From NCBI GenBank assembly GCA_040766525.1, contig JAXGQI010000003.1:16335-80334 (forward strand): a stretch of 64,000 nucleotides of DNA, given 5' to 3'. Below are positions 29,834 to 63,744 of the stretch, in pieces; position 1 is the stretch's first letter; each line of letters starts with the position of its first letter. Under the pieces are notes generated by a model. The model had not been told where the DNA came from. It worked only from the letters and a program-made list of their open reading frames with translations, and did no database searches. Source of the stretch: Clostridiales bacterium (GTDB lineage Bacteria; Bacillota; Dehalobacteriia; UBA7702). The translations under genes and the position numbers were made by a program.

Positions 29834-29834
29834 T

Positions 29835-31871: not shown

Positions 31872-31891
31872 TTCCCTACCTCCCAATCAAT

Positions 31892-32401: not shown

Positions 32402-34333
32402 AAGTGAAATTTAAGTTGATGCCGGGCTGGAGATCCGTCTTTTCCGATCTCGGCTCCCGTACCGGCGTCTCCTTTTCCCCTTCATTATCGTCATCATTGC
32501 GAAGATCTTCTACCGGTTCGCTCTGTTCTTTCAGTTTTTCGCCTGTCATCAAAGCGATAAACTCTTCTGCTTCGATGGTTTCCTGTTCATAGAGGGTCTG
32601 CGCAACGAGATGCAGTTTATCCATATGGGTTTCTAAAAGCTCTCGGCATTTCTCATAGGCGGCGTCGATCATCTTCCGGGCTTCTTTATCGATCGCCCAG
32701 GCAACCTCTTCGGAATAGGCTTTGTCTTGGGTCAATTCACGGCCTAAAAAGACCTGGTCTTGGCTCTTCCCGAAGGACATGGGCCCCAACTCTTTCGACA
32801 TACCGTAACGGGTGATCATCTTCCGTACCGTTGCTGTTGCCCGTTCTAAGTCATTTTGGGCGCCGGTGCTGATATCCTTCAAGACAAGTTCTTCCGACAA
32901 ACGACCGGCCAACAGAACCACGATCTCATCTTCCATATGGGATTTGGTGACATAATTCCGATCTTCCTTGGGCAACATTAAGGTATAGCCGCCGGCCTGT
33001 CCCCGCGGAATGATGGAAATCTTATGGACAGGGTCTGTATTGGGGGTAAAATACGCCGCCACAGCATGACCCGCCTCATGATATGATACAAGCTTACGCT
33101 CGCTCTGACTGATCACTTTACTCTTCTTTTCCGGGCCTGCAATCACGCGTTCACTGGCTTCTTCCATTTCCGCCATATGGATCTTCCGCAAATTGCGCCG
33201 GGCGGAAAGCAAGGCCGCTTCATTAACCATATTGGCCAAATCGGCCCCGGTAAAACCGGGGGTTCTCCGGGCCAAGATTTCCAAATTAACATCATCGGCC
33301 AAGGGTTTCCCTTTGATATGGACACGCAAGATCTCTTCCCGGCCTTTGACATCAGGAATGCCGACAGAAATCTGCCGATCAAAACGACCGGGGCGTAAGA
33401 GCGCCGGATCCAAAATATCGGGCCGGTTGGTGGCTGCAATCACGATGATACCGGAATTTTCGGCGAAACCATCCATTTCCACCAAAAGCTGATTCAATGT
33501 CTGCTCTCTTTCATCATGGCCACCGCCGACGCCGGCACCGCGCTGGCGGCCGACCGCGTCGATTTCATCGATGAAAATGATACAGGGAACATTCTTTTTC
33601 GCCTGTTCGAACAAATCACGCACCCGGGAAGCCCCGACCCCGACGAACATTTCCACAAAGTCGGAACCGCTGATGGAGAAGAAGGGAACCCCCGCTTCCC
33701 CGCTACAGCTTTGGCTAAAAGCGTTTTCCCGGTACCGGGATAGCCGAAGAGCAAAACGCCTTTGGGGATCTTCGCTCCCAGCATATTGTATTTGCGATTA
33801 TCTTTCAAAAAGTCAACGACTTCCTGCAATTCTTCCCGTACTTCATCAACGCCGGCAACATCGGCAAAGGTGATCTTCTGGGCATCAGCGGACTGTAATT
33901 TCGCTCGGCTTTTCCCGAATTGCATCACCTTTGAACCGCCGCCCTGGCTTTGGTTCATCAGGAAGAAAAAGAGCCCGACCAAGAGCAAGATCGGCAATAC
34001 GGTCCCCAACAAACTAAGCCACCAGGGACTGCCCGCCGCCTGTTCAAAAGAAAAGCTCCCGCCGTTCTCTTCGACCAAAGTCCGAAGACCGGAATCCGGT
34101 TCAATCGTGGCGGCATACAGGCTGTTTTCACTGTCCTCTCCTTGTACTGTCCAGGCATTTTCATCTGCAACGGCCGTTACTTTGGAGAAATCACCCGCTT
34201 CTACTTTTGTGTAAAACTCAGATGAAGTTAACTCCGTGATCTCTGTACCGGAGCCGCCTCCGATGAATTGAAAAAAAGTGATGACCAAAAATACAATCAG
34301 TATATAAATGGTGAGATTCTTAAAGAACTTCAA
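32364..34333 (-). pseudogene. ftsH: ATP-dependent zinc metalloprotease FtsH, interrupted by a single 1-nt frameshift
   Basis: N-terminal ORF 33494-34333 reads through [16 protein letters not shown] and then goes out of frame. ORF 32364-33656 continues (F)[16 protein letters not shown]...HEAGH. Adding one G to the G4 run (C4 at 33698-33701 on the plus strand) restores [18 protein letters not shown]. Confidence 0.9.
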
Positions 34334-34934
34334 AGTAGTCCTCCCTTCAAAAAACGCTTCCTAAACAAAAGTTTATCTCTCTATTATGTCTGCTTACGGC
34401 TATTTTATCTGTTTATTATAGCATAGTAATCCGTCTTTTCAAAGTCTTTCACCGGGAATTCTCAAAATATTACATCCTCCTGCAATCGGTGCTCCCAGCG
34501 AATTTTAGACTCGCGGTAACCAGTTGAGAGAAACTGGCAGAGGCAATATGCAAAAAAGTCCTGCCATTTTCCCCCGGCTTTGCCCAGCGTTTCTTCATCT
34601 TCGTACTTTGGTGATCAATCAAAAAAACTCTGTATTTACACAAAAGGATCCTGTTGCTGCAAGCTACAAAGGAGCGTATTTAGGAAGAGCGCCCTGCAAT
34701 CGCCCCGAAGGGTCTGCTGGCCGTTACAATCGCCTCTTGAATGATTTTATGCCCCAGCTGCATTTTTTATTTTAATATTGTTTTAAAATTTGGGCAAGTA
34801 CCTGTCCGGCCACGCGAGGGCAAAAGCCGCTACCAAATGTTATTGATAAAATAATCTGATTCTTTGACAGTACCATCCCTTTTCTGATAAAATATAAATG
34901 TTTAGGTTATTAAGTGAGATAGGAGTTGAACACC

Positions 34935-36465
34935 GTGAGTATCGTAGAGCAAAAACTTGCTGAATTAAAAGAAAAGCAAGCCATCAATGGTTTGGGCGGC
35001 GGAGAAAAGAGAATTGCCGCGCAACATGAGAAAGGGAAACTAACCGCTGATGAAAGGATAGAAGCACTCTTTGATAAAGGCACCTTTGTGGAAGTCGACA
35101 GTTTCGTCAGCCACCGCTGCCATGAATTCGGAATGGAAGGGGCGACAATGCCGCGTGACGGGATCGTGACCGGCTATGGCCAGATTGATGGTCGCATCGT
35201 CTATGCCTATGCCCAAGACTTCACGGTATCGGCGGGGTCTTTAGGGGAAATGCACGCACAAAAAATCTGCAAAGTCATGGACTTGGCAATGAAAGCGGGC
35301 GCTCCCTGCATCGGCATCAATGATTCCGGCGGCGCCAGAATCCAGGAAGGCGTCGACGGCTTGAACGGTTATGGCGAGATTTTCAAGAGAAATTCTCTCG
35401 CATCCGGCGTAATCCCCCAAATCTCCGTGATCATGGGGCCTTGTGCCGGCGGCGCTGTTTACTCTCCCGCATTGACCGACTTCATCTTCATGGTTGATAA
35501 GACAAGCCAAATGTTCTTGCAGCCACAACGTCGTCAAACGGTTACCGGAAGCGTCAGCGCGGTGAAGCGGGCGCCAGACCCACAATAAAGAGCAGAATGC
35601 GCTTCTATGCTAAAAATGAAGGTTGCATCCCGCGCAGATCAAGCAACTTCCGGTAAGCTATATCCTCAATAATGAGGGAACCGGCCCCGGCCAATCAATC
35701 AATCGATCCCATCGATCAGGCGGAAAAATCTTTTGCGCAAATTGATCCCCGATCAAATGAACGGGCTTTATGACATGATGGGCGCAATCAAGGCCATCGC
35801 CGATGATGGCGAGTTCTTCCCAGTACAACTGTCTATCACTAAAAATATCATTACCGGTTTCTGTACTTGGGCGGCAGCTTCCGTTAGGGTCATCGCCAAT
35901 CAACCCAAATTCTTTGCCCGGCGCCCTCGATATCAATTGCTCCGATAAGGCCGCTCGTTTCATTCGTTTCTGTGACGCCTTCAATATCCCCATCGTCACC
36001 TTCGTCGACACCCCGGGATATCTCCCCGGTGTTAAGCGAAAGAGGGCGGCATCCTCCGCCATGGGGCAAAATTACTCTATGCATATTCAACAAATGTGCC
36101 GAAGATGACCGTCATCACCAAAAGCTTTGTGGGCATATGCCTGCCATGTGCTCCCAAAGCTGCTGAACGCCGACACAGTTATCGCCTGGCCGACTGCGGA
36201 AATCGCCGTCATGAGGGGCACAAGGCGCTGCCAATATCGTTTTCGAAAAGAAATCCAGAAACGCCGAAGACAAGACGCCAAGCGCCAGAAGAAAAATCGC
36301 CGAATATGAAACGGCACCGTATCCCTATTGCTGCGCTTCCCGCGGTTTTTTGTCGACATGACCAATCGATCCTGCCGAAACCCGCTATTATCTGATTCGC
36401 TCGCCCGAAACGATAAGCAGATCGAAGACCGTCCGGAAAAAACACGGCGTATGCCGCCGCTTTAA
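34935..36465 (+). pseudogene. acyl-CoA carboxylase carboxyltransferase (propionyl-/methylmalonyl-CoA type beta subunit), heavily frame-disrupted
   Basis: The first ~195 aa are intact ([11 protein letters not shown]..., [23 protein letters not shown]). After that there are many frame changes, but motifs stay readable ([49 protein letters not shown], terminal MPPL*). Confidence 0.85.
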
Positions 36466-37644: not shown

Positions 37645-39286
37645 ATGGTTAAGGAAAAAGTCGTTATAAAAAAATCCGTGTTTTTCCCTCCGGCGATATT
37701 GATTTTGGCTTTCGTGATGATTGGATTGCTTTTCCCTCTCAATTTGCAACAGGTGCTTCGGCAACATTGAGTTTGATTCTGAAAAATTTCACTTGGTTTT
37801 ATGCATAGGTGCTACACTACTATTAGCCTTTTGTATGGGCCGGTTTCAGTAAATATGGGAAGATCAAACTTGGAGGACCAAATGCAAAACCAGAATTATC
37901 CACTCCTTCCTGGTTTTTCATTTCTCTTTGCGCCGGTATTGCTACCGGGATCGTCTGGGGTGTTGCGGAACCATGACCCACTTCATGAGTCCTCCTGCTT
38001 TCTTAGGGATTAGAGGGATTTTCTGAAAGACCGGAGAAATCGCCGTTCTCTTTCAGCCTTCCACTAGACCTTTCATACATATGGTATTTATGTAAGCGTC
38101 GCACTTTGTATGGCATTTTTCTACTACAACTGCAAAAAACCGTTCCTCTGTTCTTCCGGCATGTATGGCCTGCTTGGCGATCGAATCAACGGCGCTTGGG
38201 GTCGTGCGATTGATGCGATTGCGATTTTTGCAATTCTTGGCGGGATCGGCACCTCCTATGGTTTCGGAATTATGCAAATCGGCAGCGGTTTGAATTTCCT
38301 TTGGGGCATTCCTATTAGTAATATCCTTTATATAGGTATCGTTGTCGTAATCACTGCCTGCTATGTGATTTCCAGCTACACAGGATTATATAAAGGTATC
38401 CGATACTTAAGCAATTTCAATGTTGGACTCTATTTCTTTTTACTCTTGTTCCTAATCATTCTTGGGCCCACTATTTTTGTTCTTGATGGTACGATACAAG
38501 CGATCGGCCAATACTTCTCCAGTCTGGTTAAAATGTCATTCACAACTGACTTCATGTTTGCCACGGGTTGGTCCGGCGGCTGGTCCATTTTCTATTGGGC
38601 CTGGTGGCTTGCGTATGCTCCTATCGTCGGCCTATTCTTCGTTCGCTGTGCTTATGGCCGTACCATACGGCAATTTGTCGTTGTCAACCTTTTATTGCCA
38701 TCCCTCTTCGGCCTCATTTGGTTCGGCGTATTCGGAAATGCGGCTATTTACATCGATTTCTTCCAAAATGGCGGCATTGCCAATTTGATTGCAGAAAGAG
38801 GCAATGAAGTGTCCATGTTTGCCCTCTTCAACGAGTTCCCGCTCTCTGGGTTGACTTGCACCGTCGCCATGTTGGCAGTAGCAATCTCATTCATCACCCT
38901 TTCCGATTCCATGACTTCAACCATCGCCATGATGACCGTTGAAAAAGACTTTACAATGAATGAGGGCGACACGGCAGCAGAGAAAATGGAAGCTCCAGCT
39001 GCATCAAAGATTTTCTGGGGTATTCTCATGGGAGCTTTGGCATATGTGCTGCTAACAACAGGAGGTGCTTCAGCCTTACAATCAAGTGTTATTGCCTGCG
39101 GCCTACCAATTCCTGGTTATCCAACTGCTAATGGCAGCCGGTTATATCAAAGCAATGCTGCACGTTGACGAATATGATGTCGTCTCTTCTCGTGGATTCC
39201 TTGCTAAGTTAAGACATGGCGGTGATGAAAAGACGCCAGAGCTGGAAGAAATCAAATCAGGCGCCACCGCAACAGAAAATATCTAA
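37645..39286 (+). pseudogene. BCCT-family (betaine/carnitine/choline) transporter, frame-disrupted
   Basis: The central 352-aa ORF carries the BCCT signature (WSIFYWAWWLAYAPIVGLFFVRCAYGRTIRQF). The N-terminal ~150 aa and C-terminal ~70 aa are in other frames. Length 1642 nt is not a multiple of 3. Confidence 0.85.
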
Positions 39287-39375
39287 ACAATCATCATGCA
39301 AAAAAATAAATATTCATGCGACGAATTGCATAATTTTCTGCTATATAAAAATTTTAATTTCTCATTGGATTAAAG

Positions 39376-39391
39376 TGGCATGTGGATTGCT
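39376..39391 (+). promoter_or_regulatory. sigma54 (-24/-12) promoter
   Basis: TGGCATgtggaTTGCT: GG and GC are exactly 12 nt apart. It lies 71 nt upstream of the ATG at 39462, and a sigma54 activator gene is in the same cluster. Confidence 0.7.
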
Positions 39392-39461
39392 ATAACGTAA
39401 AACAAAATGATGAACCTTGCAAACGCAAGTTTCTTAGCAAAAAGGAGGATATCATAACAAA

Positions 39462-40902
39462 ATGAGAACAACCAATTATGTGACGAATCAGGGAACCTAT
39501 TTCAAAATGTTTACCAAGGAACAATGCCAAGAATTGCATTTTGCCGCTCTGGAAGTTTTGGAATCCGTAGGCGTAGAGATGCATAGCGAAAAAGCTTTGG
39601 AGCTTATTAAAAAAGCTGGTGCTTTAGTGGATGGTAAAAGAGTAAAAATACCTGCCTCCATGGTAGAAAAAGCTCTGCGCAGCGCTCCATCTCGCGTCGT
39701 ATTGGCTAACCGTGACGGAGAAAGAACCGTCTTTCTTGAAGGACACAAATTCTATTATGGCCCCGGACCTACCACCACCTTCATTATGGATCCGATTACC
39801 GGAGAAAGAAGATTTGGCCAATATTCCGATACCAAAAGAGCAGCTCGGGTCATGGATGCTCTACCCAACATCGATTTCTTGATGGACTTTGGAACGATCT
39901 ATGATGTCCCTGAAGAACTGATTGACGTCTACACATTTGAGGCCATGCTCACCAGTTCCAAGAAACCTATCGTTCACTGGGCTTACAATACCAAAAACTG
40001 CAAGGCAATGATTGATATGGCTTCTGAAATTTTTGGCGGCCTGGAATATCTCCAACGCAATCCGAACTTTGCTATTTACACCGAACCGATCACTCCCTTA
40101 GTACATGAATTCGATGCTCTTGATATCTCCATGCTGATGGCGGAACATGGACTTCCCAGCATTTACACACCCGCACCCCAGGCAGGGGTTACGGCACCCG
40201 CTACCATGGCCGGCACCATTGTTATCGCCCTTTGCGAATCTCTTAGCGGCCTAGTCTTGAACCAATTGGTCCGTGAAGGCGCGCCCTTCATCATGGGCGG
40301 CGTTATCACCATGATGGATCCAAGAAGCATGCAAATCACGTACGGCTCCCCCGAATTTAATATCTTGGCTGCAGGACTTTCCGAAATGGCACATTTTTAC
40401 AATATTCCCATGTTCAGCACAGCTGGTTGTGTTGATTCCAAAGCCGAGGATCAACAATCCGGCGCCGAAATGGCCACCAGTCTCTTGATGGCCGCCTTAA
40501 GCGGTGGAAATCTCATCCATGACGTTGGTTATTTTGAAAGCGGCATGAGCACCTCTTTGGTTAACTTGGTCATGGCGGATGAAATCCTTGGCTCCGTTAA
40601 ACGGATCGTTAAGGGAATCGAAGTCAATAAAGGGAAACCCTGGCTATTGATGTAATCAAAGCGTTGGCCCCGATGGAAACTTTATGGCAGAAGAACACAC
40701 CTTCAACAACTTCAAAAAAGAATGGTGGCTGCCTCAGATGTATAACAGAGAACGTCATGCAATATGGACCGCAAACGGCAGCAAAACCTTTGGTGATGCC
40801 GCCAAAGAACGTCTCATGGGTATCATCAATGATTACACCGTAGAAGAATTACCCCGCGCCACCACCGATAAATTCCAAAAAATTATCAATGATCTAAAAT
40901 AA
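39462..40902 (+). pseudogene. MttB-superfamily (non-pyrrolysine) methyltransferase with two 1-nt deletions near the 3' end
   Basis: 397 aa read cleanly with no internal TAG (so not Pyl-type). The frame goes 0->2 at AAAGGGAAA (about 40628-40637) and 2->1 at TTGGCCCC (about 40665-40670). The corrected reading is ...VNKEETLAIDVIKALGPDGNFMAEEHTF.... Confidence 0.85.
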
Positions 40903-40923
40903 GTACCATCCATAAATATACCC

Positions 40924-40945
40924 GGGCGGCGTTAAAACGCCGCCC
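40924..40945 (+). terminator. stem-loop after the first mttB-like gene
   Basis: GGGCGGCGttaaaaCGCCGCCC; no T-tract. Confidence 0.4.
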
Positions 40946-40990
40946 AACCCCCACACATTACGAAACTATACAATCACTAGGAGGCACAAT

Positions 40991-42031
40991 ATGGATAATG
41001 TAAAAACCGTTGAACTTGATTTAACTGACCGCAAATGGATCCAAAAATATCTGGACATCAACAATGAGATCTGGTATATGACCAGAGAAGATGTTGTCAA
41101 TGTAGGCCTTACCCGTGACGATATTTTAAAACTTACGGAAGATGCTATGATCGCCCATGGGAAAAAAGCTTATGAAATGCCTGCTAAAATCGGCGTACAT
41201 CCTCTTCCGGAAGTGTTCTTCCATGCCATGCCCGCCTATGTGCCGGGAAAAAATGCCGTCGGCTGCAAATGGATCGAATGCTATCCATTAAATAAAGAAC
41301 GTTTCAACTTAGACCAAACAACCGGTCTCTTGATTATAAACGACGTATATTCCGGTTGTCCCATTGCCATCATGGATTGTGCTTGGGTAACCGCTATGCG
41401 TACTCCTGCCGTTACGGTTCTCGCCGCTGCCGCCCTTCACCCGGATGCCACCACATATGGCCAATTCGGTTGCGGCGTTCAAGGCATCGAACATGTTCGT
41501 TTTGTTGTACGCACTTTAAAGAAACTGAAAGAGATCTATGTTTACGATATCAACGAAGCAGCAATGGATCATCTTATCAGTTTAGTACAACCGGAAATCG
41601 AAGCAACGATCATCAAAGCAAAAAGCGCTGAAGAGGTCACCAAATCCTGCGAAGTCCTCAGTTCCGCCACAATCATCGTAAAAGATACATTTAAAGCCAT
41701 AAAAGATGAATGGGTATCGGCAGGACAAACGATTTTGCCTTGCGATCTCAATACCTACCTTGATCCTGCCACCACCATGCGTGCCGATAAATACATTGTC
41801 GACAGTATCGACGAACATGAACTCTTCGCCGGCATGGGCTATTTCCCCGGGGGATTACCGAAAATCACATGCGAAACCGGTGAAATTTTGGCGGGTGAAA
41901 CCGGCAGAGAAAGCAAAGACAGGCTGATCGTTTGCAGCAATATTGGCATCTCCGTTAATGACGTTGTTGTTGGCAGAGAATTATTCAACCGTGCTATCGC
42001 CAATGGCATCGGACGGAAACTGCCATTATAA
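40991..42031 (+). CDS. ornithine cyclodeaminase / mu-crystallin family NAD(P) dehydrogenase
   Basis: 346 aa. VTAMRTPAVTVLAAAAL followed by GCGVQG Rossmann motif. Good RBS (TAGGAGG). Confidence 0.8.
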   Translation: MDNVKTVELDLTDRKWIQKYLDINNEIWYMTREDVVNVGLTRDDILKLTEDAMIAHGKKAYEMPAKIGVHPLPEVFFHAMPAYVPGKNAVGCKWIECYPLNKERFNLDQTTGLLIINDVYSGCPIAIMDCAWVTAMRTPAVTVLAAAALHPDATTYGQFGCGVQGIEHVRFVVRTLKKLKEIYVYDINEAAMDHLISLVQPEIEATIIKAKSAEEVTKSCEVLSSATIIVKDTFKAIKDEWVSAGQTILPCDLNTYLDPATTMRADKYIVDSIDEHELFAGMGYFPGGLPKITCETGEILAGETGRESKDRLIVCSNIGISVNDVVVGRELFNRAIANGIGRKLPL

Positions 42032-42068
42032 AGTAAATCTCCGCCTATCGCATAAAACAAAGAACCTC

Positions 42069-42127
42069 GTATACCGAGGGGAATCCACCCTCGGTATACC
42101 CCCCGCGGGGTTCGAAACTAATTTTTT
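42069..42127 (+). terminator. double stem-loop plus T-tract after the OCD-family gene
   Basis: 12-bp perfect stem GTATACCGAGGG/CCCTCGGTATAC, then CCCCGCGGGG, then ...AATTTTTTG. Confidence 0.55.
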
Positions 42128-42157
42128 GTTTTATTTAGAAGTGAAAGGAGTATATAT

Positions 42158-42946
42158 ATGATCTATTTACCCAGAGATCCCGGCATCAGCACGATTTACG
42201 CACGCAAAAAAACGGTTGCCTATGGAATGGGGCTGGGCATTATGCTTCTTGATGAAGTATATCCTGGTTTTCCCGGGGATGTTCGCAATGCCAGCGCTTT
42301 TCCTTATCCCATCCAGTATGATGTCGTTCGCGATATCAGCATCAAAAAGCTTGTTTATGATGAGGATAAGACACCTTGTCGTCAACCGATCCTTGATGCC
42401 GCAAAACGCCTGGAAACGCTGGGTTGCCGTGCAATTGCCGCCGAATGCGGATACTTTGCCTATTTCCAAAAAGACGTTGCCGGTTATGTTGATATACCCG
42501 TTTTCATGTCCAGCCTTTTACAGGTTCCCATGATTCAACAATGTATTGGCCCCAACAAAACTGTAGCCATTTATTGTGCCGTCAAAAACTCTTTAACCGA
42601 TAACCATCTTAAGGCCGTTGGCATCGATCCCAATAGCAATATTGTAATCGGCGGCGGTATGGATGAATACAAAAACTCCGAATTTATCAGCTTATGGAAC
42701 GAAGAATTACGCCCTGAAGTTCCCATGGCCAATTACGAAAAATCGGAAAAAGATATTATTGCCGCCATCAAAGACATGATCAGCAAAAATCCAAGCATAG
42801 GTGCGATTATGCTAGAATGCACCGGCATGCAACCCTTTGGCAGAGCCATTCAAAGAGCTGTCGATTTGCCCGTTTATGACTGGGGGACATTGTTAGATTA
42901 TGCCTATTCTGTTATCAACCACAGAGATTATTATGGTCATGTATAA
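42158..42946 (+). CDS. Asp/Glu/hydantoin-racemase-superfamily protein
   Basis: 262 aa with two Cys-containing motifs (AAECGYF and MLECTGM) spaced as in two-Cys racemase/isomerase folds. Assigned from memory of the family only. Confidence 0.5.
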   Translation: MIYLPRDPGISTIYARKKTVAYGMGLGIMLLDEVYPGFPGDVRNASAFPYPIQYDVVRDISIKKLVYDEDKTPCRQPILDAAKRLETLGCRAIAAECGYFAYFQKDVAGYVDIPVFMSSLLQVPMIQQCIGPNKTVAIYCAVKNSLTDNHLKAVGIDPNSNIVIGGGMDEYKNSEFISLWNEELRPEVPMANYEKSEKDIIAAIKDMISKNPSIGAIMLECTGMQPFGRAIQRAVDLPVYDWGTLLDYAYSVINHRDYYGHV

Positions 42947-43185
42947 TGGGTCTTGGTGCTAAACGCACCATCATCACCATTATAAAAGGCCGCAGTAAAG
43001 CTCTTTCTCATCTCCATATTTTTACTCTCAAACGATCTATTGATCGGTACATCTCTCTTCTTTTTTTTATTCCGCCGTTAAGGCGGAGTTCCTTTATTCG
43101 GCACTTTGCGAAAGGACATTGGAAACCGCTCAAGATCCAATTGTAGCAAAACTTGTCATATGTGCAAAAATCTGCTACGATTGAA

Positions 43186-43223
43186 TTGCAAATCTATTTG
43201 CAATATTTTGCACTTTGGTTGCA
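43186..43223 (+). promoter_or_regulatory. phased TTGCA repeats upstream of the activator gene (operator and/or degenerate sigma54 promoter)
   Basis: TTGCA at 43186, 43198, 43208 and 43219 (spacing 12/10/11). TGCAAATctATTTGCA is a 7-bp-arm palindrome. TTGCACtttggTTGCA differs from TGGCAC-N5-TTGCA only at the first G of the -24 GG. Confidence 0.4.
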
Positions 43224-43244
43224 ATCAAAAGGGAGTGACAAAAA

Positions 43245-44960
43245 ATGAAAGAGCGAAGATTATTACAAAATTATTTCGAAACCATTTATCGAAATAAAGA
43301 AGAATGCTTAGTGGTTTGTAACGCGCAAGGGGATATCACATATCATAATCCATCGTTTTCCCTGCATTTTGGCAACTATGATTCCATTTTTGATCTATTC
43401 CCGGACTTTCCTCACTTCCCCCATACTTTGCCTATGTTGGAAGATGAAAAAATTGAAAGTGATGTAACCCATATCAAACTTGATGGTGAAACCTTTTATG
43501 TTGCCTTTTTGCGCATTGTTCCTGAATGGGAGATTCCTTCTCCCCTTTTGGTTCATGCATTAAAGACCGTTCTCAATACGGTGGAAGATGGAATATCCGT
43601 CATTGATGATACCGGACATTTTATTTTTTATAATGCTGCTTTGGAAAACTTGGAAGGATATCGCGCACAAGACGTTATCGGAAAACATGTGTCGGATCTC
43701 TATAATGTTAACCCGCAAACCAGCCAATTATTGCATGCCCTGGAAAGCAAACAAATGATACGAGAATACCGACAACATTATTCGATGAAAAATAACCGGG
43801 ATTTTGAGGTGATTATTGAAGCGCATCCCCTCTTTAGAAATAATAAAGCTGTCGGCGCCATCTGTATTTACAAAGACAAAACAATGTTGGAAAAACTTAC
43901 ACGCAAATATTATTTTCTCCAAGAGAGTAAAGCGGATTCCATCCACTATGTCAATACAAATTTAGCAACAAAAGATACAAACCCCCAGCTCATTGGCAAT
44001 AATGTGAATTTCTTGGAAAGCTTGCAAATGATGCAAACAGCTGCCGCCAGTAATTCTCCCGTCATGATTTATGGCGAGACCGGTACCGGCAAAGAGCTTT
44101 TTGCCCGAGAAATCCATAGTTTAAGCAACCGCGCAGAACACCCATTTATCGCTATTAACTGCGCCGCCATTCCCGAATCATTATTGGAAGGATTGCTTTT
44201 CGGCACAGTCAAAGGGGCTTTCACCGGCGCATCCCAAATGGAAGGCCTTTTTGAGCAAGCCAACGGGGGAACCATCTTTCTGGATGAGTTAAACTCAATG
44301 CCCCTTGCTTTACAGGCAAAAATATTGCGTGCCATAGAAGAAAAATCTATTCGTCGATTAGGGGATAAAAAATGCATCCCCATTGATATCCGCATTGTTA
44401 GCAGCACAAATCATGATCCTATTGCCGCCATAAATGAAGGGTTAATGCGCTCAGACCTTTTTTATCGTCTAGCTGTCTTTTTTATTAAAATTCCTCCGCT
44501 TAGGGAAAGGATTGACGATATTGAATTACTGGTTTCCTACTTCATAAAAGTATTCAATAAAGAATCCAAGAAAAAAATCATCGGTGTACATCCAGATGTG
44601 ATTCAGGGATTTAAGGCCTATGCATGGCCAGGGAATATCCGGCAACTACGCAATATTATCGAATGTGCTATGAATTTTGTTGGCGATAAAGACACGATCC
44701 TCCATAAAATCCATGCCCCGTTATGCCAATATCTTTGATAATGAATGGAAGGCCTTGGAATTATCCAATAATCCCCATGCGAATGAAGATAATGACTAAG
44801 GAACGCAACATTATATCGGAGATCAAGGAGAGGAAAAAGCAGAGATTATCCGAGATATTAAAAAGGACACAAGAGCAATATTACGCAAGCTGCTAAACGC
44901 ATGGGCATTAGCCGCCAATCTCTCCAATATAAAATGAAAAAAAATAATCTATCTAGTAGT
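43245..44960 (+). pseudogene. sigma54-dependent transcriptional activator (PAS-PAS-AAA+-HTH) with its C-terminal HTH out of frame
   Basis: [21 protein letters not shown] and ...[15 protein letters not shown] are intact in the 497-aa ORF. The Fis-type HTH (NITQAAKRMGISRQSLQYKMKKNNL) lies in another frame after the stop at 44738. Confidence 0.8.
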
Positions 44961-44972
44961 AAGTGCCAAATT

Positions 44973-46363
44973 ATGATCGATAGACTGCAAAAAATACACG
45001 AAGCAAGCATGGCTATGCTCAAAAACACCGGGATGAAATTTCATCATCCCGAAGCAATAACAATTCTGAAAGAAAATGGCATCACCACCAAAGGCAATAT
45101 TGCTTATTTCACGGAAGAGCAATTGATGTACTGGGTGAAAAAAGCCCCATCCTCCTTTTCTTTATGCTCAATCCCCAGCATAACATTGTAATCGGCGGAA
45201 ACAATGTTCATATGGCGCCTTGTTATGGTGCGCCTCGTATGGACAAGGATGGGAACAAACGGTCTGCCTCCATAAAAGACTATGTCAAACTGGCAAAACT
45301 TTTTCAAACCAATGATGATTATCATGTAAATGGCGGTTTGATGGTCAACCCAATGATATCCCCATCAAAAACAGTCCGCTCTATTTATTCTATGCCGCAT
45401 GCACCCATTCCGATAAATGTATGATGGTGTCATCGGGCGCAAAAGACCAAATGGAAATGCTCATGGATATTACCGCTCTCGCATTTGGAGGTAAAAGACT
45501 CTCGCCAAATATCCTCGTATTCTAACGATTGTAAATGCCAATACACCTTTACAACTCGATATTACTATGACCGATGTACTCTTAACCTTCCGCAAAACAC
45601 GGGCAACCTTTTGTCGTCGCTTCTGCAGCCGCTGCTTGACCCATCTCCGTAACCTTAGCCGGCACCATTGCGATGACCAATGCGGAAGTTTTGGCCACAT
45701 CGCCTTAGCACAGATGGTCAATCCCGGCACACCGGTAATTTACGCCTCCCAATCCACCACCGCCGATATGCGTACCGGAAGCATCGCAATCAGGTCTCCC
45801 GAGGAGCGCTGTTATAAGTATTGCGCCCAATTAGCCAAGTTCTATCAACTCCCCTGCCGTGGCAGCGGGACGCTGACCGACAGCAAAACGATTGATGCCC
45901 AAGCCGGATATGAATCCTTGCTCACGTTCTAGCTTGTTGTCAAAATAAAGTAAGATTTCATCATTCATTCTGCCGGCATCCTTGACGGATATGCCTGTAT
46001 CTCCTACGAAAAAGTCATTATGATTTTGAAGTTAACCGTTATGTCCTTCGCTATCTACGTGAATTTGAAATCAATCAAGATACGATTCCTTTAGATCTCA
46101 TCAATGAAGTGGGTCATACAGGGGAATACCTTGCAAAGACCATACCTTCCAGTATTTATGTGAACCATTAACACGATTAGTTCCCGAGGTCTTGTCGCTG
46201 ATCCTCTGGGTCAAATGGGCCATAGAATCGACGAACAGATGAACAAGTTGTGGATGCATATACGGTTCCCGCTCAAGATCATAATATCACCTCTTCCATA
46301 AAGGCATATCTTGAGGCAAAGGGATTGGATATAAACTTACTGGAAGCCATCGAACAATATTGA
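44973..46363 (+). pseudogene. second MttB-superfamily methyltransferase, heavily frame-disrupted
   Basis: N-terminus MIDRLQKIHEASMAMLKNTGMKFHHPEA..., then at least 6 frame changes and stops. The C-terminal ...VDAYTVPAQDHNITSSIKAYLEAKGLDINLLEAIEQY* is still readable. Confidence 0.8.
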
Positions 46364-46390
46364 GGACACCATTTCCCAAAGGAGGGAAAT

Positions 46391-47677
46391 ATGCTCAAAT
46401 CAACAAAATATGAAAAAGATATGTTAGCAGGTGCTCATGGCAAATTAAAACAACAGGCTATAAAAAAGGTTGTCGATTATGCCAAAATCCTGAACGCCAC
46501 AGAATTATGTGAGGTAACCATGGCACACCTTTTTTGCGGAGGCCATCATTATCTTGATGCGGCTGGTAGCGACAACATTGCGGAAACCATCGCACAAATG
46601 CACTATTGCACTCATGATATTTTGCCCCAAGAAGAATTTGTTTGCTATTGCCAAGCAGACTCGGGGCCTTTGGATCCAGCTCATTATTTAAAAATGAATG
46701 CAACTGAAGAAGAGGCCCAACACAATAACGATTTCCTCACCTACTTTCAAAAACAGGGTGTCAACCTTACAGGAACCTGCGTCCCCTATCTTTGTGGTTT
46801 TGTTCCTCTCAGGGGAGAACATTTTGTATCCAGTGAATCTCATGCCGTAACTTTAATGAACTCACTATGGGGCGCTGCCGGCAATGCCGACGGGCTGGAG
46901 GCAGGCTTTTGGGCTGCCGCCTGTGGGAGGATACCCAAATGGGGGAATCATATCGCAGAAAACCGCAAAGGTACCCATGTATTCAATATTTGTTGCACGA
47001 TGAAATCAAGCAGGGATTGGGATCTTCTCGGTTATACCATCGGCCGGTTTCTCCCCACCCATAGCATACCCGTAATAACAGGCTTATCGGATCGCCCCGA
47101 TATCGTTAAGCTCAAATATTTCTTTGCGGCCATGGCAACTACGGCCGGTCCAGAAATGTGCCATATCGTTGGGATCACACCGGAAGCCACCCAAATTGAA
47201 GCCGCTTTGGGTGGGGAAAAACCCAAAGCAATTCGGGATATTTCATCCATCGATATAGAAAAATCATATGATATTCTCAATAGCAAACAACAAAACGGTA
47301 AACTGGACTATGTAAGTCTTGGCTGCCCTCATTACAGCATTGAAGAATTACGCAAGATCGCTAAATTGCTTAGAGGGAAAAAAATAGCAAAAAATACCAT
47401 TTTGCACATTTGGACTGCCGGCCCGATAAAGGAAACCGCTGATCGTTCCGGCTATACGAAGGATATCGAGGCTTCAGGCGCCCATCTTCTTACCAGTACC
47501 TGCCCATTGTTAAGCGGGAAAATGCCCAAAGGATGCCAAACAGCGGCTTTTGATTCAGCCAAGCAAGCGCATTATTTAAAGGCAGAGGGTAAAGCCAATA
47601 TATGTTATGGCACAATGGAAAAATGCATCCAAAGTGCCATATCGGGGAAATGGGAGGTAGCACCATGGGAAGAATAA
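46391..47677 (+). CDS. aconitase X large subunit (DUF521)
   Basis: 428 aa; N-terminal EKDMLAGAHGKLKQQAIKKVVDYAKILNATELCEVTMAH.. resembles DUF521. Followed by an overlapping DUF126 gene. Strong RBS (AAAGGAGGG). Confidence 0.75.
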   Translation: MLKSTKYEKDMLAGAHGKLKQQAIKKVVDYAKILNATELCEVTMAHLFCGGHHYLDAAGSDNIAETIAQMHYCTHDILPQEEFVCYCQADSGPLDPAHYLKMNATEEEAQHNNDFLTYFQKQGVNLTGTCVPYLCGFVPLRGEHFVSSESHAVTLMNSLWGAAGNADGLEAGFWAAACGRIPKWGNHIAENRKGTHVFNICCTMKSSRDWDLLGYTIGRFLPTHSIPVITGLSDRPDIVKLKYFFAAMATTAGPEMCHIVGITPEATQIEAALGGEKPKAIRDISSIDIEKSYDILNSKQQNGKLDYVSLGCPHYSIEELRKIAKLLRGKKIAKNTILHIWTAGPIKETADRSGYTKDIEASGAHLLTSTCPLLSGKMPKGCQTAAFDSAKQAHYLKAEGKANICYGTMEKCIQSAISGKWEVAPWEE

Positions 47678-48096
47678 TCCAGGGGCGAGGAGCTGTAGGC
47701 GGTATTTGCAAAGGTATTGCAATGGTCAGCCGGGAAACCATTCAAGGTTGGTCGGGAATAGACGAAAAGACCGGGGTCATCTTGGAAGAAAACCATCCTT
47801 TTCAAAGGAAATCTCTAAAAGATTCCATCTTGATTATCTCAGGAGGCAAAGGTTCCAATGGCTGGTCTTGCCACTTCCATGCAGCAAAGCTTAAAGGGGT
47901 TGCTCCCGGCGCCCTAGTTTTCCCCAAAATGGATTCACGCACCGGCGTTGCTGCTGCAGTGATGGGCGTACCCGTCGTTACAGATTTAAAAGAAGATATT
48001 TTTGCTCTGGTAAAAACAGGTGATACTGTCATCGTTCATGGTGATGACGGATATATTGAAATAATCGATCCTGCAAAAAATGATAACGTGAGGTAA
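47665..48096 (+). CDS. aconitase X small (swivel) subunit (DUF126)
   Basis: 143 aa from ATG 47665 (13-nt overlap with the large subunit). ISGGKGSNGWS...GVAPGALVF...GVPVV pattern typical of DUF126. Confidence 0.75.
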   Translation: MGRIIQGRGAVGGICKGIAMVSRETIQGWSGIDEKTGVILEENHPFQRKSLKDSILIISGGKGSNGWSCHFHAAKLKGVAPGALVFPKMDSRTGVAAAVMGVPVVTDLKEDIFALVKTGDTVIVHGDDGYIEIIDPAKNDNVR

Positions 48097-48100
48097 GGCC

Positions 48101-49027
48101 ATGACAAGACAAAGAGCGGTGATCTATACCATCTCAGCTTCGCTTTTGTTTGGGCTCATCCCCTTCATTGTAGCAAAAGCCTATGAAACAGGAATGAATG
48201 CCTTTGACGTATTGTTTTTCCGTTTCTTCTTTGCGGGCATCCTCTTCTATTTCATTTTACGCCTACGAAAAGAGACCCTGGCTATAACTTGGTTGCAAAT
48301 GCGGATTTTGCTTATTATGGGCATTGTGGGTTATGTCATGATGAACGCCACCTTGTTCCTGTCCTATAATTATCTATCCATCGGTCTAGCAACAACGATT
48401 CACTTTGCCTATCCTATCGTGGTCACCATTCTTGCCTATTTTTTTTATAAGCAAAAATTGAGACGTATTGGCATAATAGCGTTGTTTCTGGCCACTTTGG
48501 GGATTATTCTCCTTTCTGCCGACGATTATTCGATTAACAGCATATTAGGACTCGTACTCTCCTTTTCATCGGCGGTGTTTTTTGCAGCCTATGTCCTTTT
48601 AATCGCTCATCCTGAAATCAAAAGCATGAGCCCATGGAAAATTCTGTTTTATGTATCTTTGCTGACAACCGTTTTACTTTTTGTCGGTGAACTATGTTTT
48701 GGGACAACGCCCTTTGTCCGCCTCACCGGCATGGGTTGCCTTTATATGCTGATACTCTCAGTAGGGTGCACAGTGGTTTCTCTTGCCCTGTTTACTCTAG
48801 GGATAAAAAGGATGGGGCCTGCCACGGCTTGCATTTTAGCCACTCTAGAACCGATTACCAGCATTCTATTGGGCGCACTGTTTTTAGGCGAACAATTTAA
48901 TTTACAAATCGGCGTTGGTTGTGTTTTCGTTATTGTTGCCGTAGTGCTCATCTCTTTACCCAGTAAAGGCGAAGCGGAAGCACAGCAACCACAAACAACG
49001 GAAGTACAAAATCATGAATCATATTAG
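48101..49027 (+). CDS. EamA/DMT-family transporter
   Basis: 308 aa, 10 hydrophobic segments in two EamA-like halves. Confidence 0.8.
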   Translation: MTRQRAVIYTISASLLFGLIPFIVAKAYETGMNAFDVLFFRFFFAGILFYFILRLRKETLAITWLQMRILLIMGIVGYVMMNATLFLSYNYLSIGLATTIHFAYPIVVTILAYFFYKQKLRRIGIIALFLATLGIILLSADDYSINSILGLVLSFSSAVFFAAYVLLIAHPEIKSMSPWKILFYVSLLTTVLLFVGELCFGTTPFVRLTGMGCLYMLILSVGCTVVSLALFTLGIKRMGPATACILATLEPITSILLGALFLGEQFNLQIGVGCVFVIVAVVLISLPSKGEAEAQQPQTTEVQNHESY

Positions 49028-49316: not shown

Positions 49317-49367
49317 ATGATTGCCATCGCCTTAATCAAGACCACCCGTCAACGGGTGGTCTTAATC

Positions 49368-52617: not shown

Positions 52618-53691
52618 TTACTCCCGAATATCTACCAAAGTTTCATTGCTCACCGTTGCTTCCGCAAAAGTGGCCATATGATTCATGATCGCCAATGCGC
52701 AATCGACCACATGGAAGGCCAACGGGCAACCGCTCCCTTCGCCCAAACGCATGTCAAGATTTAAGATCGGCTCCATATCGATCTGGGCCATCATCGCCAA
52801 AAATCCCGGTTCAGCCGAACTGTGGGAAGGGATCATATATTGGCGGCTGAGCGGGTTCATCCGATAGGCGACCAGCGCCGCAGCAGCGGAAATGAACCCG
52901 TCCACCACGACCGGAACCTTATGGGCAGCCGCAGCCAAGAAAACCCCGGTTAAACCGGCAATATCAAAACCGCCGACCTTGGCAACAACATCGATGGGAT
53001 CATCCTTATCCGGCTGGTTCAACTCCAGCGCCTTTTTCAACACTGATTTTTTATAATTATGGGCTTCATCGGTGAGGCCTGCGCCTTTCCCGACCGCTAT
53101 ATCAATTTCAACGCCTCCCAAAGCAGCCAAGATACAACTGCTGGAGCTGGTGTTGCCAATGCCCATTTCGCCCGTGCCGATCAGATCATAGCCTTGTTCG
53201 ATCAAGCTTTCCGCTACTTCGATACCGATTTCCATCGCCTTGACCGCATCCTCTCTGGACATTGCGGGGCCTTTGGCAAAATTGGCGGTACCATTGGCGA
53301 TCTTTTTCTGAAGAACACCGGGAAAAGCCGAGGTATCCCCATTAACACCAATATCAACGACGGTAAGATCCGCTCCTGCTTCCTTCGCCAACACCGCTAC
53401 GCCGGTAACCCCTTTCATAAAATTACCGGTCATAATCAAAGTTACCACCTGGGGCGCAGCAGCAACGCCTTCTTCAACGATGCCATTGTCCGCCGACATG
53501 ACGATAATCCCTTTTTTCTTGATTTCATTTTTCACTTGGCCGGTAATCCCGGCGATCTGTGCGGAAATGGCCTCTAAGCGGCCAAGACTGCCAATCGGTT
53601 TTACCAAGTCGTCCAAACGGGCGCGGGCGGCAGCCACCGCAGTTTCATCAATAGGGGTAATTTGGGCCAGGGTTTTTTGTAGTAACTCCAT
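52618..53691 (-). CDS. cobT: nicotinate-nucleotide--dimethylbenzimidazole phosphoribosyltransferase
   Basis: GEMGIGNTSSSS and GEGSG motifs. Start set at ATG 53691 (MELLQ), 8 nt after AAGGAG; the track start GTG 53700 abuts the RBS. Confidence 0.88.
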   Translation of the reverse strand: MELLQKTLAQITPIDETAVAAARARLDDLVKPIGSLGRLEAISAQIAGITGQVKNEIKKKGIIVMSADNGIVEEGVAAAPQVVTLIMTGNFMKGVTGVAVLAKEAGADLTVVDIGVNGDTSAFPGVLQKKIANGTANFAKGPAMSREDAVKAMEIGIEVAESLIEQGYDLIGTGEMGIGNTSSSSCILAALGGVEIDIAVGKGAGLTDEAHNYKKSVLKKALELNQPDKDDPIDVVAKVGGFDIAGLTGVFLAAAAHKVPVVVDGFISAAAALVAYRMNPLSRQYMIPSHSSAEPGFLAMMAQIDMEPILNLDMRLGEGSGCPLAFHVVDCALAIMNHMATFAEATVSNETLVDIRE

Positions 53692-53711
53692 CTTGTTCAC
53701 TCCTTAAAATA

Positions 53712-53948
53712 AATAATCCGCACCTATGGAGGTGCGGATATGAGACAATGCAACCCGCAACCTTCCCTCCCGAGGTTGAGGCAAATAATTTGGCAGGTTT
53801 CCTGACTCGAGGATCTCCTTACTTTCCGGCCTTCTCAGCGTTAGCCAATGGCGATTCGGATTTCATCCCCTCTTACAGTAGCGGGTGCTGTAACGGCATT
53901 GAACCGTTTTCCCTTTTACCCAAAAATTTGGCACCGTTCCCATATTCT
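53712..53948 (-). promoter_or_regulatory. cobalamin (B12) riboswitch with terminator expression platform
   Basis: The minus strand contains GGGAACGGTGCC..., CAGCACCCGCTACTGTAAGAGG and the B12-box-like AGTCAGGAAACCTGCC. It ends in hairpin ATCCGCACCTccatAGGTGCGGAT plus a T-rich tract just before the cobT RBS. Confidence 0.85.
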
Positions 53949-53986: not shown

Positions 53987-54001
53987 TGGCAAAATCCGTC
54001 A

Positions 54002-54353
54002 AGACCAAATCTATAAGCCGAGTTCTGTTTCGATCATCATCTATCTAGTCTTATAGTCGCCTATAAGCTCATGCAACCTAACCCGGAAGCGGAGCGGGCA
54101 ACTCCACATGCTTCCCTATTCGGTCTTGCACCAGGTGGGGTTTACCTGGCCAGCCTGTTACCAGGCTGCCGGTGCGCTCTTACCGCACCGTTCCACCCTT
54201 ACCTTCAACCGAAGCGGTCAAAGGCGGTTTATTTCTGTGGCACTATCCTTAAGGTCGCCCTCACCGGCCGTTAGCCGGCACCCTGCCCTATGGTGCTCGG
54301 ACTTTCCTCAGGAAAGGCAAAATGCCTCTCCCGCGATGATCCAATTTGCTCTA
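54002..54353 (-). ncRNA. rnpB: RNase P RNA
   Basis: The minus strand contains GAGGAAAGTCCGAGC (P4 5' strand), GGTAAGGGTG.AACGGTGCGGTAAGAGCGCACC and ACAGAACTCGGCTTATAG (P4 3' strand). Ends are approximate (+/-10 nt). Track ORFs 54071-54359 are spurious. Confidence 0.88.
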
Positions 54354-60442: not shown

Positions 60443-60451
60443 TTATTTAAT

Positions 60452-60568: not shown

Positions 60569-60658
60569 AAACTAACTTTATATAAGGTTTTGAGTTCTTT
60601 AAAAATTGTATAGAGAAAGCAGGGATCCAAAATACTTTAGTTTAATCAAAGGCTAAAA

Positions 60659-63744
<3,086 letters not shown>

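Follow-up and report, generated by a model that had tools for sequence, protein, structure and literature searches.

The stretch between positions 37,645 and 49,027 of the window (the whole 64,000-nucleotide piece of DNA analysed here, from contig JAXGQI010000003.1 of a Clostridiales bacterium) raises the question of what nine genes of very different families do together. All lie on the + strand and encode, in order, a BCCT-family transporter, a methyltransferase of the MttB superfamily (MttB1), an oxidoreductase of the OCD/mu-crystallin family, a racemase-fold protein, a sigma54 activator, a second methyltransferase (MttB2), the large and small subunits of the Fe-S dehydratase AcnX, and an EamA-family transporter. 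Families were assigned with Pfam and NCBIfam profiles on the open reading frames (ORFs) of the window, scores being read against gathering or curated cutoffs, and the matches bear out the gene content, order and positions proposed in a first-pass annotation made from the sequence alone (Table 1). These 11 kb carry a recurrent, uncharacterised anaerobic gene cluster in partly broken form. On balance, context and analogy make it probable that this cluster is a composite catabolic island, at least partly under sigma54 control, whose substrate is an N-methylated compound (of betaine or amino-acid type) imported by BCCT, and that it is built from two recurrent units. The first would consist of BCCT, an Arg-less "F-type" methyltransferase (MttB1), OCD and the PAS-sigma54 activator, accompanied by an "R-type" methyltransferase (MttB2) and EamA; the second would pair the two subunits of a Type-II AcnX with a two-cysteine racemase-fold enzyme.

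One line of evidence is gene linkage across genomes. Relatives of the AcnX large subunit at 40-70% identity were collected from 80 genome loci and 80 metagenome loci (designated by L numbers). Neighbouring ORFs were clustered and the clusters named by Pfam and NCBIfam; the genome counts refer to 78 non-redundant loci and a radius of 8 kb, the metagenome counts to 58 loci with at least 4 kb of flank, and all are raw with respect to MttB copy number. Among the genome loci, AcnX is accompanied by MttB at 29, a TRAP transporter at ~20, RidA at 19, BCCT at 17, DUF1904 at 14, a PRK07475 racemase at 13, a serine-dehydratase-like Fe-S enzyme at 11, Octopine_DH at 10, a corrinoid protein at eight, a member of the Pro_racemase family at six and OCD at no fewer than five. 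The metagenome loci contribute 18 opine dehydrogenases, 17 OCD genes and nine MttB genes. In a neighbour-joining tree, the MttB-linked AcnX pairs fall into at least four separate subclades, and every member of the subclade that includes the window AcnX has an adjacent PRK07475-type racemase gene. The first-pass annotation had staked its hypothesis on the linkage of these families being conserved in other genomes, and the survey did find AcnX pairs recurring with MttB, BCCT and OCD-type genes. The functional set of the window is repeated in L006 (a Eubacteriaceae metagenome-assembled genome), with an opine dehydrogenase in place of OCD, a PocR/AraC regulator, and an AcnX large subunit 65% identical to that of the window; the order there is MttB, MttB, racemase (62%), BCCT, Octopine_DH, PanB, corrinoid protein, AcnX large, AcnX small, a second racemase and EamA. 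The combination is not a chance neighbourhood. Furthermore, three unrelated imine-reductase families (OCD, Octopine_DH and Ldh_2), all of which catalyse NAD(P)-linked C-N redox reactions, alternate beside AcnX. Of the arguments from context, this alternation speaks most strongly for an imine as the AcnX product, to be taken on by a reductase. Other clades carry RidA, DUF1904 and 2-oxoacid:ferredoxin oxidoreductase instead of a reductase, which suggests that there the imine is hydrolysed to a 2-oxo acid.

The first unit recurs in its own right, as MttB1, OCD, BCCT and the activator form an intact group in at least five other genomes. L084, where all genes are intact and neither AcnX nor a racemase gene is present, has the order MttBx-EamA followed by BCCT-MttB1-OCD-activator, with identities to the window proteins of 85% (OCD), 82% (MttB1, 480 residues in L084), 57% (BCCT), 55% (activator) and 51% (EamA). 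Relative to this layout, the window has a racemase gene after OCD and the AcnX genes between MttB2 and EamA; a frameshift-aware alignment to L084 matches 373 of 549 BCCT residues and 224 of 466 residues of MttB2 to MttBx. In Candidatus Formimonas warabiya (L087; OCD 73% identical), the order is activator, corrinoid protein, MttB1 orthologue, OCD, BCCT and a second MttB. In L173-L176, which are abundant Lachnospiraceae-type contigs (8001-9455 and flanks; OCD 63-67% identical in L173/L175), a corrinoid protein and OCD are divergent from MttB1, BCCT and the activator, and genes for a RACo activase and a URO-D MT2 methyltransferase lie in the vicinity. Together, the Arg-less MttB, OCD, BCCT, the PAS-sigma54 activator and the corrinoid protein make up a module that stands on its own and is widely sampled, sometimes with RACo and a URO-D MT2 gene. 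In L084 (19708-21372), the distance from the intact MttB-OCD module to a phage-type integrase gene and an HTH_17 gene is ~5 kb, which hints at mobility.

Regulation of this unit by sigma54 had already been proposed, and it gains from the comparison. The element upstream of MttB1 reads TGGCAT-N5-TTGCT, one of four -24/-12 matches in the window against 1.9 expected by chance, and perfect -24/-12 elements stand at the matching position upstream of the MttB1 orthologues in L084, L087, L173 and L175. As these precede MttB1 orthologues elsewhere, the promoter at 39376-39391 is strongly supported. L173 and L175 have a second sigma54 element directed toward OCD, so that divergent promoters lie between OCD and MttB. 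Upstream of MttB2 and of AcnX, a scan that tolerated up to one mismatch gave no such element, and the window contains no rpoN gene. The -24 GG/-12 GC element is matched by the AAA+ domain of the activator encoded in the island, as in a sigma54-dependent regulon. Of the NCBIfam models of enhancer-binding proteins, the activator scores best against PrdR (NF041552), with 356 bits (382 for the intact L084 orthologue) against a cutoff of 795, and 263 bits or fewer against the others. The earlier description as PAS-PAS-AAA+ is right in the AAA+ sigma54 activator and too generous in the number of PAS domains, only one of which is confident (residues 107-215). The helix-turn-helix (HTH) motif had been reported as out of frame; the ORF does end at 44738, three +1 frameshifts severing the HTH_8 segment GISRQSLQYKMKK, and the helix itself is back in the original frame. 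At 44890-45000, the HTH segment GISRQSLQYKMKKNNL reads stop-free into the N-terminus of MttB2, and at this junction the original stop and the intergenic region are missing or altered.

The two methyltransferases differ at the positions that hold the substrate. In MtgB, glycine betaine is contacted by Tyr97, Arg312, His348 and Phe356, and the salt bridge from Arg312 to the substrate carboxylate is kept in MtpB, MtcB, MtyB and MthB (PMC13080624). At these four contacts MttB2 has the signature Y-R-H-Y, that of the characterised quaternary-amine methyltransferases, and MttB2 and its counterparts together show Y/S-R-H-Y/F; the Arg is kept in MttB2, L084 MttBx, L087 and L006_b. In MttB1 and its orthologues the contacts are P-F-H-G, with Phe318 at the Arg312 position and the His kept, which sets them apart from the characterised methyltransferases acting on acidic quaternary amines. 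F-type proteins share the motif P-x-F-S/T-T-A-G-C-x-D-S-K. MttB1 has no in-frame TAG, as had been noted, and the pyrrolysine-equivalent position is Cys323; against the model for the pyrrolysine trimethylamine methyltransferase (TIGR02369, cutoff 525), the truncated MttB1 reaches 337 bits and the intact F-type orthologue of L084 422.6, compared with 278.5 for the R-type protein. L006_a and L091_a have Tyr at the Arg312 position, like the pyrrolysine-containing MttB of M. barkeri. Seven of the 11 loci with two MttB genes pair one F-type or Arg-less gene with one R-type gene.

In the second unit, both AcnX profiles score above their gathering thresholds and the two genes are adjacent, with the 13-nt overlap (47665-47677) noticed in the first reading and found identically in L001 and L006. 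The catalytic core is kept: the swivel-domain Ser lies in K-G-S-N-G, and the large subunit has E149, S150, K391 and Y395 as well as the cysteines C130, C312 and C371. In AcnX enzymes this Ser is the base, the Glu-Ser pair, Lys and Tyr contact the carboxylate and C3 hydroxyl of the substrate, and the cysteines are ligands of an Fe-S cluster. This core and the three cysteines are invariant in 81 large-subunit sequences, except for Tyr395 (Tyr in 60), and the swivel-domain Ser is invariant in 70 small subunits. The racemase-fold protein matches PRK07475 above its cutoff and Pfam Asp_Glu_race just below (29.3 bits, cutoff 31); C97 and C221 are invariant in the sequence columns of 21 homologues, in keeping with the superfamily, which has two catalytic cysteines, one per pseudo-symmetric domain. 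A sequence search found no relative of it in the PDB, and its placement there comes from fold comparison alone: an AlphaFold2 model (mean predicted local distance difference test score 79.7) gave as top Foldseek hits 1jfl (aspartate racemase) and 2eq5 (hydantoin racemase), with TM-scores of 0.6-0.68. More than 120 database clusters at 63-73% identity belong to its subfamily, which occurs with MttB clusters in L089, Sporomusa termitida (L091) and Dehalobacterium (L092).

From the gene families, lesions, conserved linkage, conserved promoters and residue signatures observed, we infer a substrate and every catalytic step of the following route. BCCT would take up an onium-type substrate, whose N-methyl groups would go one by one to a corrinoid protein with its gene in another part of the genome. 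MttB2 would act on the quaternary carboxylate-bearing form, and MttB1 on a form bound without the Arg-carboxylate contact, as for trimethylamine. The racemase-fold enzyme could then invert the alpha-carbon (C2), and AcnX would strip the C2 proton and C3 hydroxyl to give an enamine/imine. OCD would interconvert this imine and a saturated (N-alkyl or cyclic) amino acid with NAD(P)H, and EamA may export a product. Neither a corrinoid protein nor an MT2 homologue was found anywhere in the window by tblastn, in agreement with the first reading. In E. limosum, MttB-family genes are encoded apart from mtqC/mtqA (PMC8604678), so the lack of both genes nearby is normal for such systems. More broadly, and more tentatively, the island may represent a widespread, undescribed class of anaerobic pathway in which oxygen-independent, corrinoid-dependent N-demethylation by MttB proteins is combined with a PLP (pyridoxal phosphate)-independent Fe-S dehydratase, a racemase with two cysteines and an imine reductase. 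The MttB proteins would include a new Arg-less class with a binding-site signature like that of trimethylamine methyltransferase, the dehydratase would be an AcnX of a new Type-II subclass, and OCD, opine dehydrogenase or Ldh_2 could each serve as the reductase. Hydroxylated N-methyl amino acids or betaines, 3-hydroxyproline betaine for example, would thereby be converted to proline or 2-oxo acids.

Several observations weigh against this composite reading. It is built on genomic context and analogy, and the exact subfamilies contain no assayed enzyme. Genomes rich in MttB paralogues, some with dozens of copies, raise the odds of accidental proximity. The two units can work independently, since the first is found without AcnX (L084, L087, L173-L176) and AcnX with a racemase is found without MttB (L001, L003, L005). 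The racemases beside AcnX in the latter three loci belong to another branch of PRK07475 and are 33-37% identical to the window protein. A strictly sequential demethylation, R-type and then F-type, was considered as a general rule and dropped, F-type being alone with BCCT in L173-L176. At the active site of AcnX, Gly50 stands where AtAcnX has Asp203, a mapping that rests on the HMMER alignment (MAFFT left the N-terminal loops of AtAcnX and TkAcnX unaligned to the clade), and Ser-Asn-Gly replaces Ser70-Cys71-Thr72. Finally, ftsH (32364-34333, - strand) is split into two overlapping ORFs by the loss of 1 nt in the G-run GCGGGGAAGCGGGGG, as sequencing errors typically produce; since ilvB is frameshifted too, the pseudogene status of MttB1 and the activator is uncertain.

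The replaced AcnX residues bear directly on the substrate. In AtAcnX, a cis-3-hydroxy-L-proline (C3LHyp) dehydratase and the only characterised AcnX that dehydrates an amino acid, the ring nitrogen is held by Asp203 and Thr72, and activity is lost in the D203A variant; the C3LHyp-binding sites are reported to be completely conserved in Type-IIa, and Watanabe et al. state that Types IIc to IIf, in which these sites are missing, are of unknown function (PMC8184944). The Gly is present in 79 of the 81 clade members. As the core is kept and the nitrogen-binding residues are replaced, the sequence suggests that the window AcnX is a 3-hydroxy-acid dehydratase with a different C2/C4 pocket. A 3-hydroxyproline-type betaine is the best single candidate substrate, though a tentative one. 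The corresponding route, which is plausible though less likely than not, would have a 3-hydroxystachydrine-like betaine or N-methyl-3-hydroxyproline imported, demethylated by both MttB proteins, epimerised, dehydrated by AcnX to delta1-pyrroline-2-carboxylate (Pyr2C) and reduced by OCD to proline. Two MttB genes would suit the two N-methyl groups of proline-type betaines, and the activator is far closer to the proline-responsive PrdR than to any other model. A hydroxyproline-type substrate is also kept in view by L007-L009 and L094, sister loci within the window AcnX subclade: they have a gene of the Pro_racemase family, for which trans-3-hydroxy-L-proline dehydratase is the top match (373.8 bits, cutoff 550). 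In Synergistales loci (L026), the gene immediately preceding AcnX encodes an OCD protein of the same subfamily (53% identity), and a counterpart of AtAcnX Trp35, the residue packed against the pyrrolidine ring, is kept. Among PDB entries, OCD is nearest to alanine dehydrogenase and SbnB, followed by the Pyr2C reductase of T. litoralis (6t3e, 78 bits).

However, the two enzymes on which that route turns do not match it. The large subunit scores 196 bits and the small subunit 42 on the C3LHyp dehydratase model (cutoff 700), and the window AcnX lies outside that clade, lacking Asp203 and Thr72. OCD fails every Pyr2C-reductase model (NF045512 LhpI, NF004793 and NF005603: 35, 59 and 42 bits against cutoffs of 400, 322 and 266); its best NCBIfam models are SbnB (148 bits, cutoff 327) and archaeal alanine dehydrogenase (113 bits, cutoff 409), both below cutoff. 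OCD orthologues adjoin MttB1 orthologues where no AcnX is nearby, so the substrate of OCD need not be the AcnX product. MttB1 lacks the carboxylate-contacting Arg of all characterised betaine methyltransferases, MtpB included (PMC13080624), and the literature search, which covered few subscription journals, found no paper linking these families. The interpretation offered in the first-pass annotation is thus partly supported: the linkage and sigma54 control are, and the lack of a nearby corrinoid protein and MT2 is as expected; the assignments of AcnX as a C3LHyp dehydratase and of OCD as a Pyr2C reductase are not supported.

A second question is whether the island is really broken. Lesions were placed by frameshift-aware alignment to the intact L084 orthologues, with breakpoints good to a few nucleotides. 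BCCT has six frameshifts and two stops, seven of these eight lesions lying within the first 150 codons; the stop at 38065 is a clean Trp TGG-to-TAG substitution. MttB1 has exactly the two 1-nt deletions reported earlier, near 40629 and 40661 (32 nt apart), the activator has +1 insertions near 44715, 44791 and 44870, just before the HTH, and MttB2 has ~11 frameshifts and at least one stop, so that the initial description of BCCT as broken and MttB2 as badly broken holds, with ~8 and ~12 lesions. The other five genes (OCD, the racemase-fold gene, the two AcnX genes and EamA) have kept their full length. They had been called the intact downstream genes; they are intact, but OCD and the racemase-fold gene sit in the middle of the island. 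In all, ~25 lesions fall in the 6.2 kb of the four broken genes and none in the 4.5 kb of the five interleaved ones, for which a uniform rate gives a probability of ~3e-5. As the uptake gene, both demethylase genes and the activator gene carry these lesions, the pathway is probably non-functional in this genome, unless part of the damage is assembly error.

That the breaks are largely assembly artefacts, left by an unpolished long-read consensus in paralogue-rich regions while the island is intact in the living organism, is rather unlikely, yet several features favour it. The breaks that the first reading placed in the uptake, demethylation and regulator genes are not the only ones in the window. 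Besides ftsH, ilvB (18163-19831; encoding a thiamine-diphosphate enzyme and followed by an intact ilvN) and a carboxyltransferase gene (34926-36108) are fragmented, and a peptidase M29 gene (22325-23125) is truncated. Because ftsH is essential, its break suggests that the assembly contains indel errors. The broken island genes belong to multi-copy families (MttB, BCCT and enhancer-binding proteins), for which read mapping during polishing would be ambiguous, and MttB1 has just two indels, close together. Against an artefact, lesion density varies more than tenfold, from ~9 per kb in MttB2 through at least ~0.2 per kb in the core region (13-34 kb) to none in the neighbouring intact 4.5 kb; the BCCT stop is a clean substitution; and homopolymers show no excess of indels, 10 of 22 lying near a run of 4 nt or more against an expected fraction of ~0.44. 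In our reading, MttB2 and BCCT are truly degraded; the two indels of MttB1 and the three of the activator could be either recent inactivations or assembly errors. The genes folP, folB, folK and panC (28991-31886) are intact. The ORF fragments that fill ~9 kb at 3500-12300, including pieces of ABC-transporter ATPase and permease genes, are a further point for an artefact; this region could be either a pseudogene graveyard or a badly polished piece of assembly.

Less probable still is the view that two unrelated pathways lie side by side, the demethylation unit (BCCT, MttB1, MttB2, OCD, activator and EamA) and the AcnX/racemase unit sharing no metabolite. Each does occur alone (L084, L087, L173-L176 for the former; L001, L003, L005, L010 for the latter), AcnX relatives are linked to TRAP/ABC transporters more often than to BCCT, and only the demethylation unit is broken, AcnX and racemase being intact, as independent selection would give. 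However, relative to L084 the AcnX genes are inserted inside the MttB2-EamA operon and not beside it, the whole set is repeated in L006, and the window racemase comes from the MttB-associated subfamily. In addition, many loci belonging to separate AcnX subclades have the genes for AcnX small, BCCT and MttB next to one another and in the same orientation. A carnitine-like route, in which AcnX dehydrates carnitine, norcarnitine or a similar beta-hydroxy acid without an alpha-amino group (a 3-hydroxy, 4-ammonio acid) and the MttB proteins demethylate it, is very improbable: AcnX chemistry needs just a carboxylate, a C2 hydrogen and a C3 hydroxyl, with the core kept and the alpha-nitrogen contacts absent, BCCT carriers include carnitine transporters (183 bits for the window BCCT on the CaiT model), and the MttB-family carnitine demethylase MtcB is known, but the route has no role for an alpha-carbon racemase or an OCD-type C-N oxidoreductase, published E. 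limosum mtcB primers are unmatched in the covered part of the AcnX-linked locus L039, and the RidA, Pro_racemase and serine-dehydratase-like neighbours indicate alpha-amino or imino acids.

The composite island can be set against several known systems. Non-pyrrolysine MttB demethylases include MtgB (glycine betaine) of D. hafniense and MtpB (proline betaine), MtcB (carnitine) and MtyB (gamma-butyrobetaine) of E. limosum. The window resembles them in its pyrrolysine-free MttB genes for MT1, its BCCT importer and a corrinoid protein and MT2 encoded elsewhere, as in E. limosum (PMC8604678), and MttB2 keeps the Arg312 and His348 carboxylate contacts. In contrast, MttB1 has Phe at Arg312 and Gly at Phe356 and is nearer the trimethylamine methyltransferase model than R-type proteins are; the known systems also remove a single methyl group, and no OCD, racemase or AcnX partners are described for them.

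The C3LHyp pathway (AcnX Type-I/IIa LhpI with Pyr2C reductase; Watanabe et al. 2016, 2021) shares the AcnX fold and swivel Ser, equivalents of AtAcnX Glu292, Ser293, Lys530 and Tyr534, and the pairing in the genome with an NAD(P)H imine-reductase-type enzyme. The window differs in its three-cysteine (4Fe-4S-type) ligands, where AtAcnX has Cys273/Cys508/Cys510 and a [2Fe-2S] cluster, in the replacement of both Asp203 and Thr72 by Gly, in its low identity to AtAcnX (26.8%) and in its setting with MttB in anaerobic Firmicutes. By sequence, the nearest solved structure (131 bits, 31.5% identity) is the archaeal Type-IIb phosphomevalonate dehydratase TkAcnX (PDB 7cnr), which likewise has two subunits and the same three cysteine ligands. 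Unlike TkAcnX, the window protein is bacterial and in a catabolic context, its small subunit has Trp for Leu27(S), Gly for Val64(S) and Ser-Asn-Gly for Ser-Thr-Val, and no mevalonate-pathway genes lie near it. Type-IIb enzymes are marked by a phosphate-binding loop (Gly48-Val49-Ser50), Asn53, Asn79, Leu27(S) and Val64(S) as well as by a mevalonate-pathway setting; the N-terminal loop of the large subunit is unreliably aligned to TkAcnX by HMMER.

Aerobic catabolism of proline betaine and hydroxyproline betaine in Paracoccus and Rhodobacter uses the 2-epimerase HpbD (enolase superfamily) and oxygen-dependent Rieske-type demethylases. The route proposed for the window has the same logic (import of a proline-type betaine, C2 epimerisation, N-demethylation and entry into proline/hydroxyproline metabolism) with enzymes of other families, namely a racemase-fold protein and oxygen-independent corrinoid methyltransferases. 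In the beta-hydroxyaspartate cycle (BhcB and BhcD), a beta-hydroxy amino acid likewise yields an imine that is reduced by an OCD-family enzyme, but BhcB is PLP-dependent and the window OCD scores 31.5 bits on the BhcD model (cutoff 500). All the families and MttB-based betaine demethylation are already known. What appears to be new is the coupling of MttB to a Type-II AcnX dehydratase, a racemase and an imine reductase, together with an Arg-less MttB class paired with OCD; no paper linking AcnX/DUF521 with MttB was found in a search that covered few subscription journals.

If the broader class of pathway suggested above is real, it would give a first function to AcnX Types IIc to IIf and to the MttB1-OCD module abundant in Lachnospiraceae-type contigs. 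AcnX Type-II subclasses beyond IIa and IIb are of unknown function (PMC8184944). Among the dozens of MttB paralogues in acetogens, most lack a known substrate. Trimethylamine, a compound with a link to cardiovascular risk, is formed in competition with quaternary-amine demethylation. The linkage and the MttB1-OCD-BCCT-sigma54 module supply candidate enzymes, substrates and intact clusters in the cultivable E. limosum, Sporomusa termitida and Ca. Formimonas. The copy in the window is probably degraded, and its value is as a pointer to a cluster type and not as a working system.

Table 1. Genes and signals of the island, with positions in the window and the profile or other support for each.
Feature	Position	Strand	Support
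BCCT-family transporter gene, broken	37645..39286	+	PF02028 340 bits on 352-residue ORF
Sigma54-type -24/-12 element TGGCATGTGGATTGCT	39376..39391	+	70 nt upstream of MttB1 ATG
MttB1, non-pyrrolysine MttB superfamily, F-type	39462..40902	+	PF06253 260 bits
OCD/mu-crystallin-family NAD(P) oxidoreductase, intact, 346 residues	40991..42031	+	PF02423 127 bits, gathering score 24
Asp/Glu/hydantoin-racemase-superfamily protein, intact, 262 residues	42158..42946	+	NCBIfam PRK07475 267.6 bits, cutoff 231
Terminator-like hairpin after racemase-fold gene	43069..43089	+	consensus scan only
PAS/AAA+ sigma54 enhancer-binding protein	43245..44954	+	PF00158 209 bits, PAS_9 59 bits
MttB2, R-type MttB superfamily, heavily degraded	44967..46360	+	PF06253 fragments 41 + 76 bits
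AcnX large subunit (DUF521), intact, 428 residues	46391..47677	+	PF04412 350 bits, gathering score 31.5
AcnX small (swivel) subunit (DUF126), intact	47665..48096	+	PF01989 81 bits, gathering score 27
EamA/DMT-family transporter, intact, 308 residues	48101..49027	+	PF00892 108 bits
Terminator-like hairpin after EamA	49338..49363	+	consensus scan only

The first of the two terminator-like hairpins may mark the end of an MttB1-OCD-racemase transcription unit. Strong GC-rich hairpins also lie in the MttB1-OCD (40922-40947) and OCD-racemase (42069-42099) spacers. The island had been described as AT-rich; its GC content of 43.7% is the lowest of any 11.4-kb stretch in the window, though only modestly below the 47.8% of the remainder. 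Examination of ORFs flanking the island found no integrase, transposase or tRNA gene.

Other AcnX neighbourhoods show further arrangements. An operon of XRE-cupin, RidA, AcnX large, AcnX small, DUF1904, BCCT and R-type MttB recurs in L039 (an E. limosum metagenome-assembled genome), L017, L019, L030, L038, L047 and L056, and operons of this kind sometimes end in four subunits of 2-oxoacid:ferredoxin oxidoreductase, suggesting dehydration followed by hydrolysis of the imine to a 2-oxo acid. Identification of the E. limosum MttB of L039 with MtcB gained no support, as the published mtcB primers had no match there; the MttB gene at the left end of L039 starts within ~80 nt of the contig end, and the region upstream is not covered. 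In L082/L083 (Blautia), L074/L077 (Dethiosulfatibacter), L067 and L073, a homologue of aromatic amino acid lyases occurs with BCCT, MttB and AcnX, with the extras of three molybdenum-hydroxylase subunits (L067, L082/L083), Ldh_2 (L073, L082/L083) or two AcnX pairs (L074, L082/L083). The panB gene is found inside MttB clusters in L006 (8261-9115; PanB equivalog, 316 bits, cutoff 208), L091 (10534-11385) and L173 (1-275), the last two being identified by the Pfam Pantoate_transf domain alone; a tetrahydrofolate-dependent hydroxymethyl transferase is odd in a methylotrophic cluster.

Elsewhere in the window, a cobalamin riboswitch (53775-53948, - strand, 104 bits) lies upstream of a cobT-like phosphoribosyltransferase gene (52618-53700, - strand). 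RNase P RNA is encoded at 53998-54352, and the region 60371-63909 contains a 5S-23S rRNA operon that includes tRNA-Asn and tRNA-Ala.

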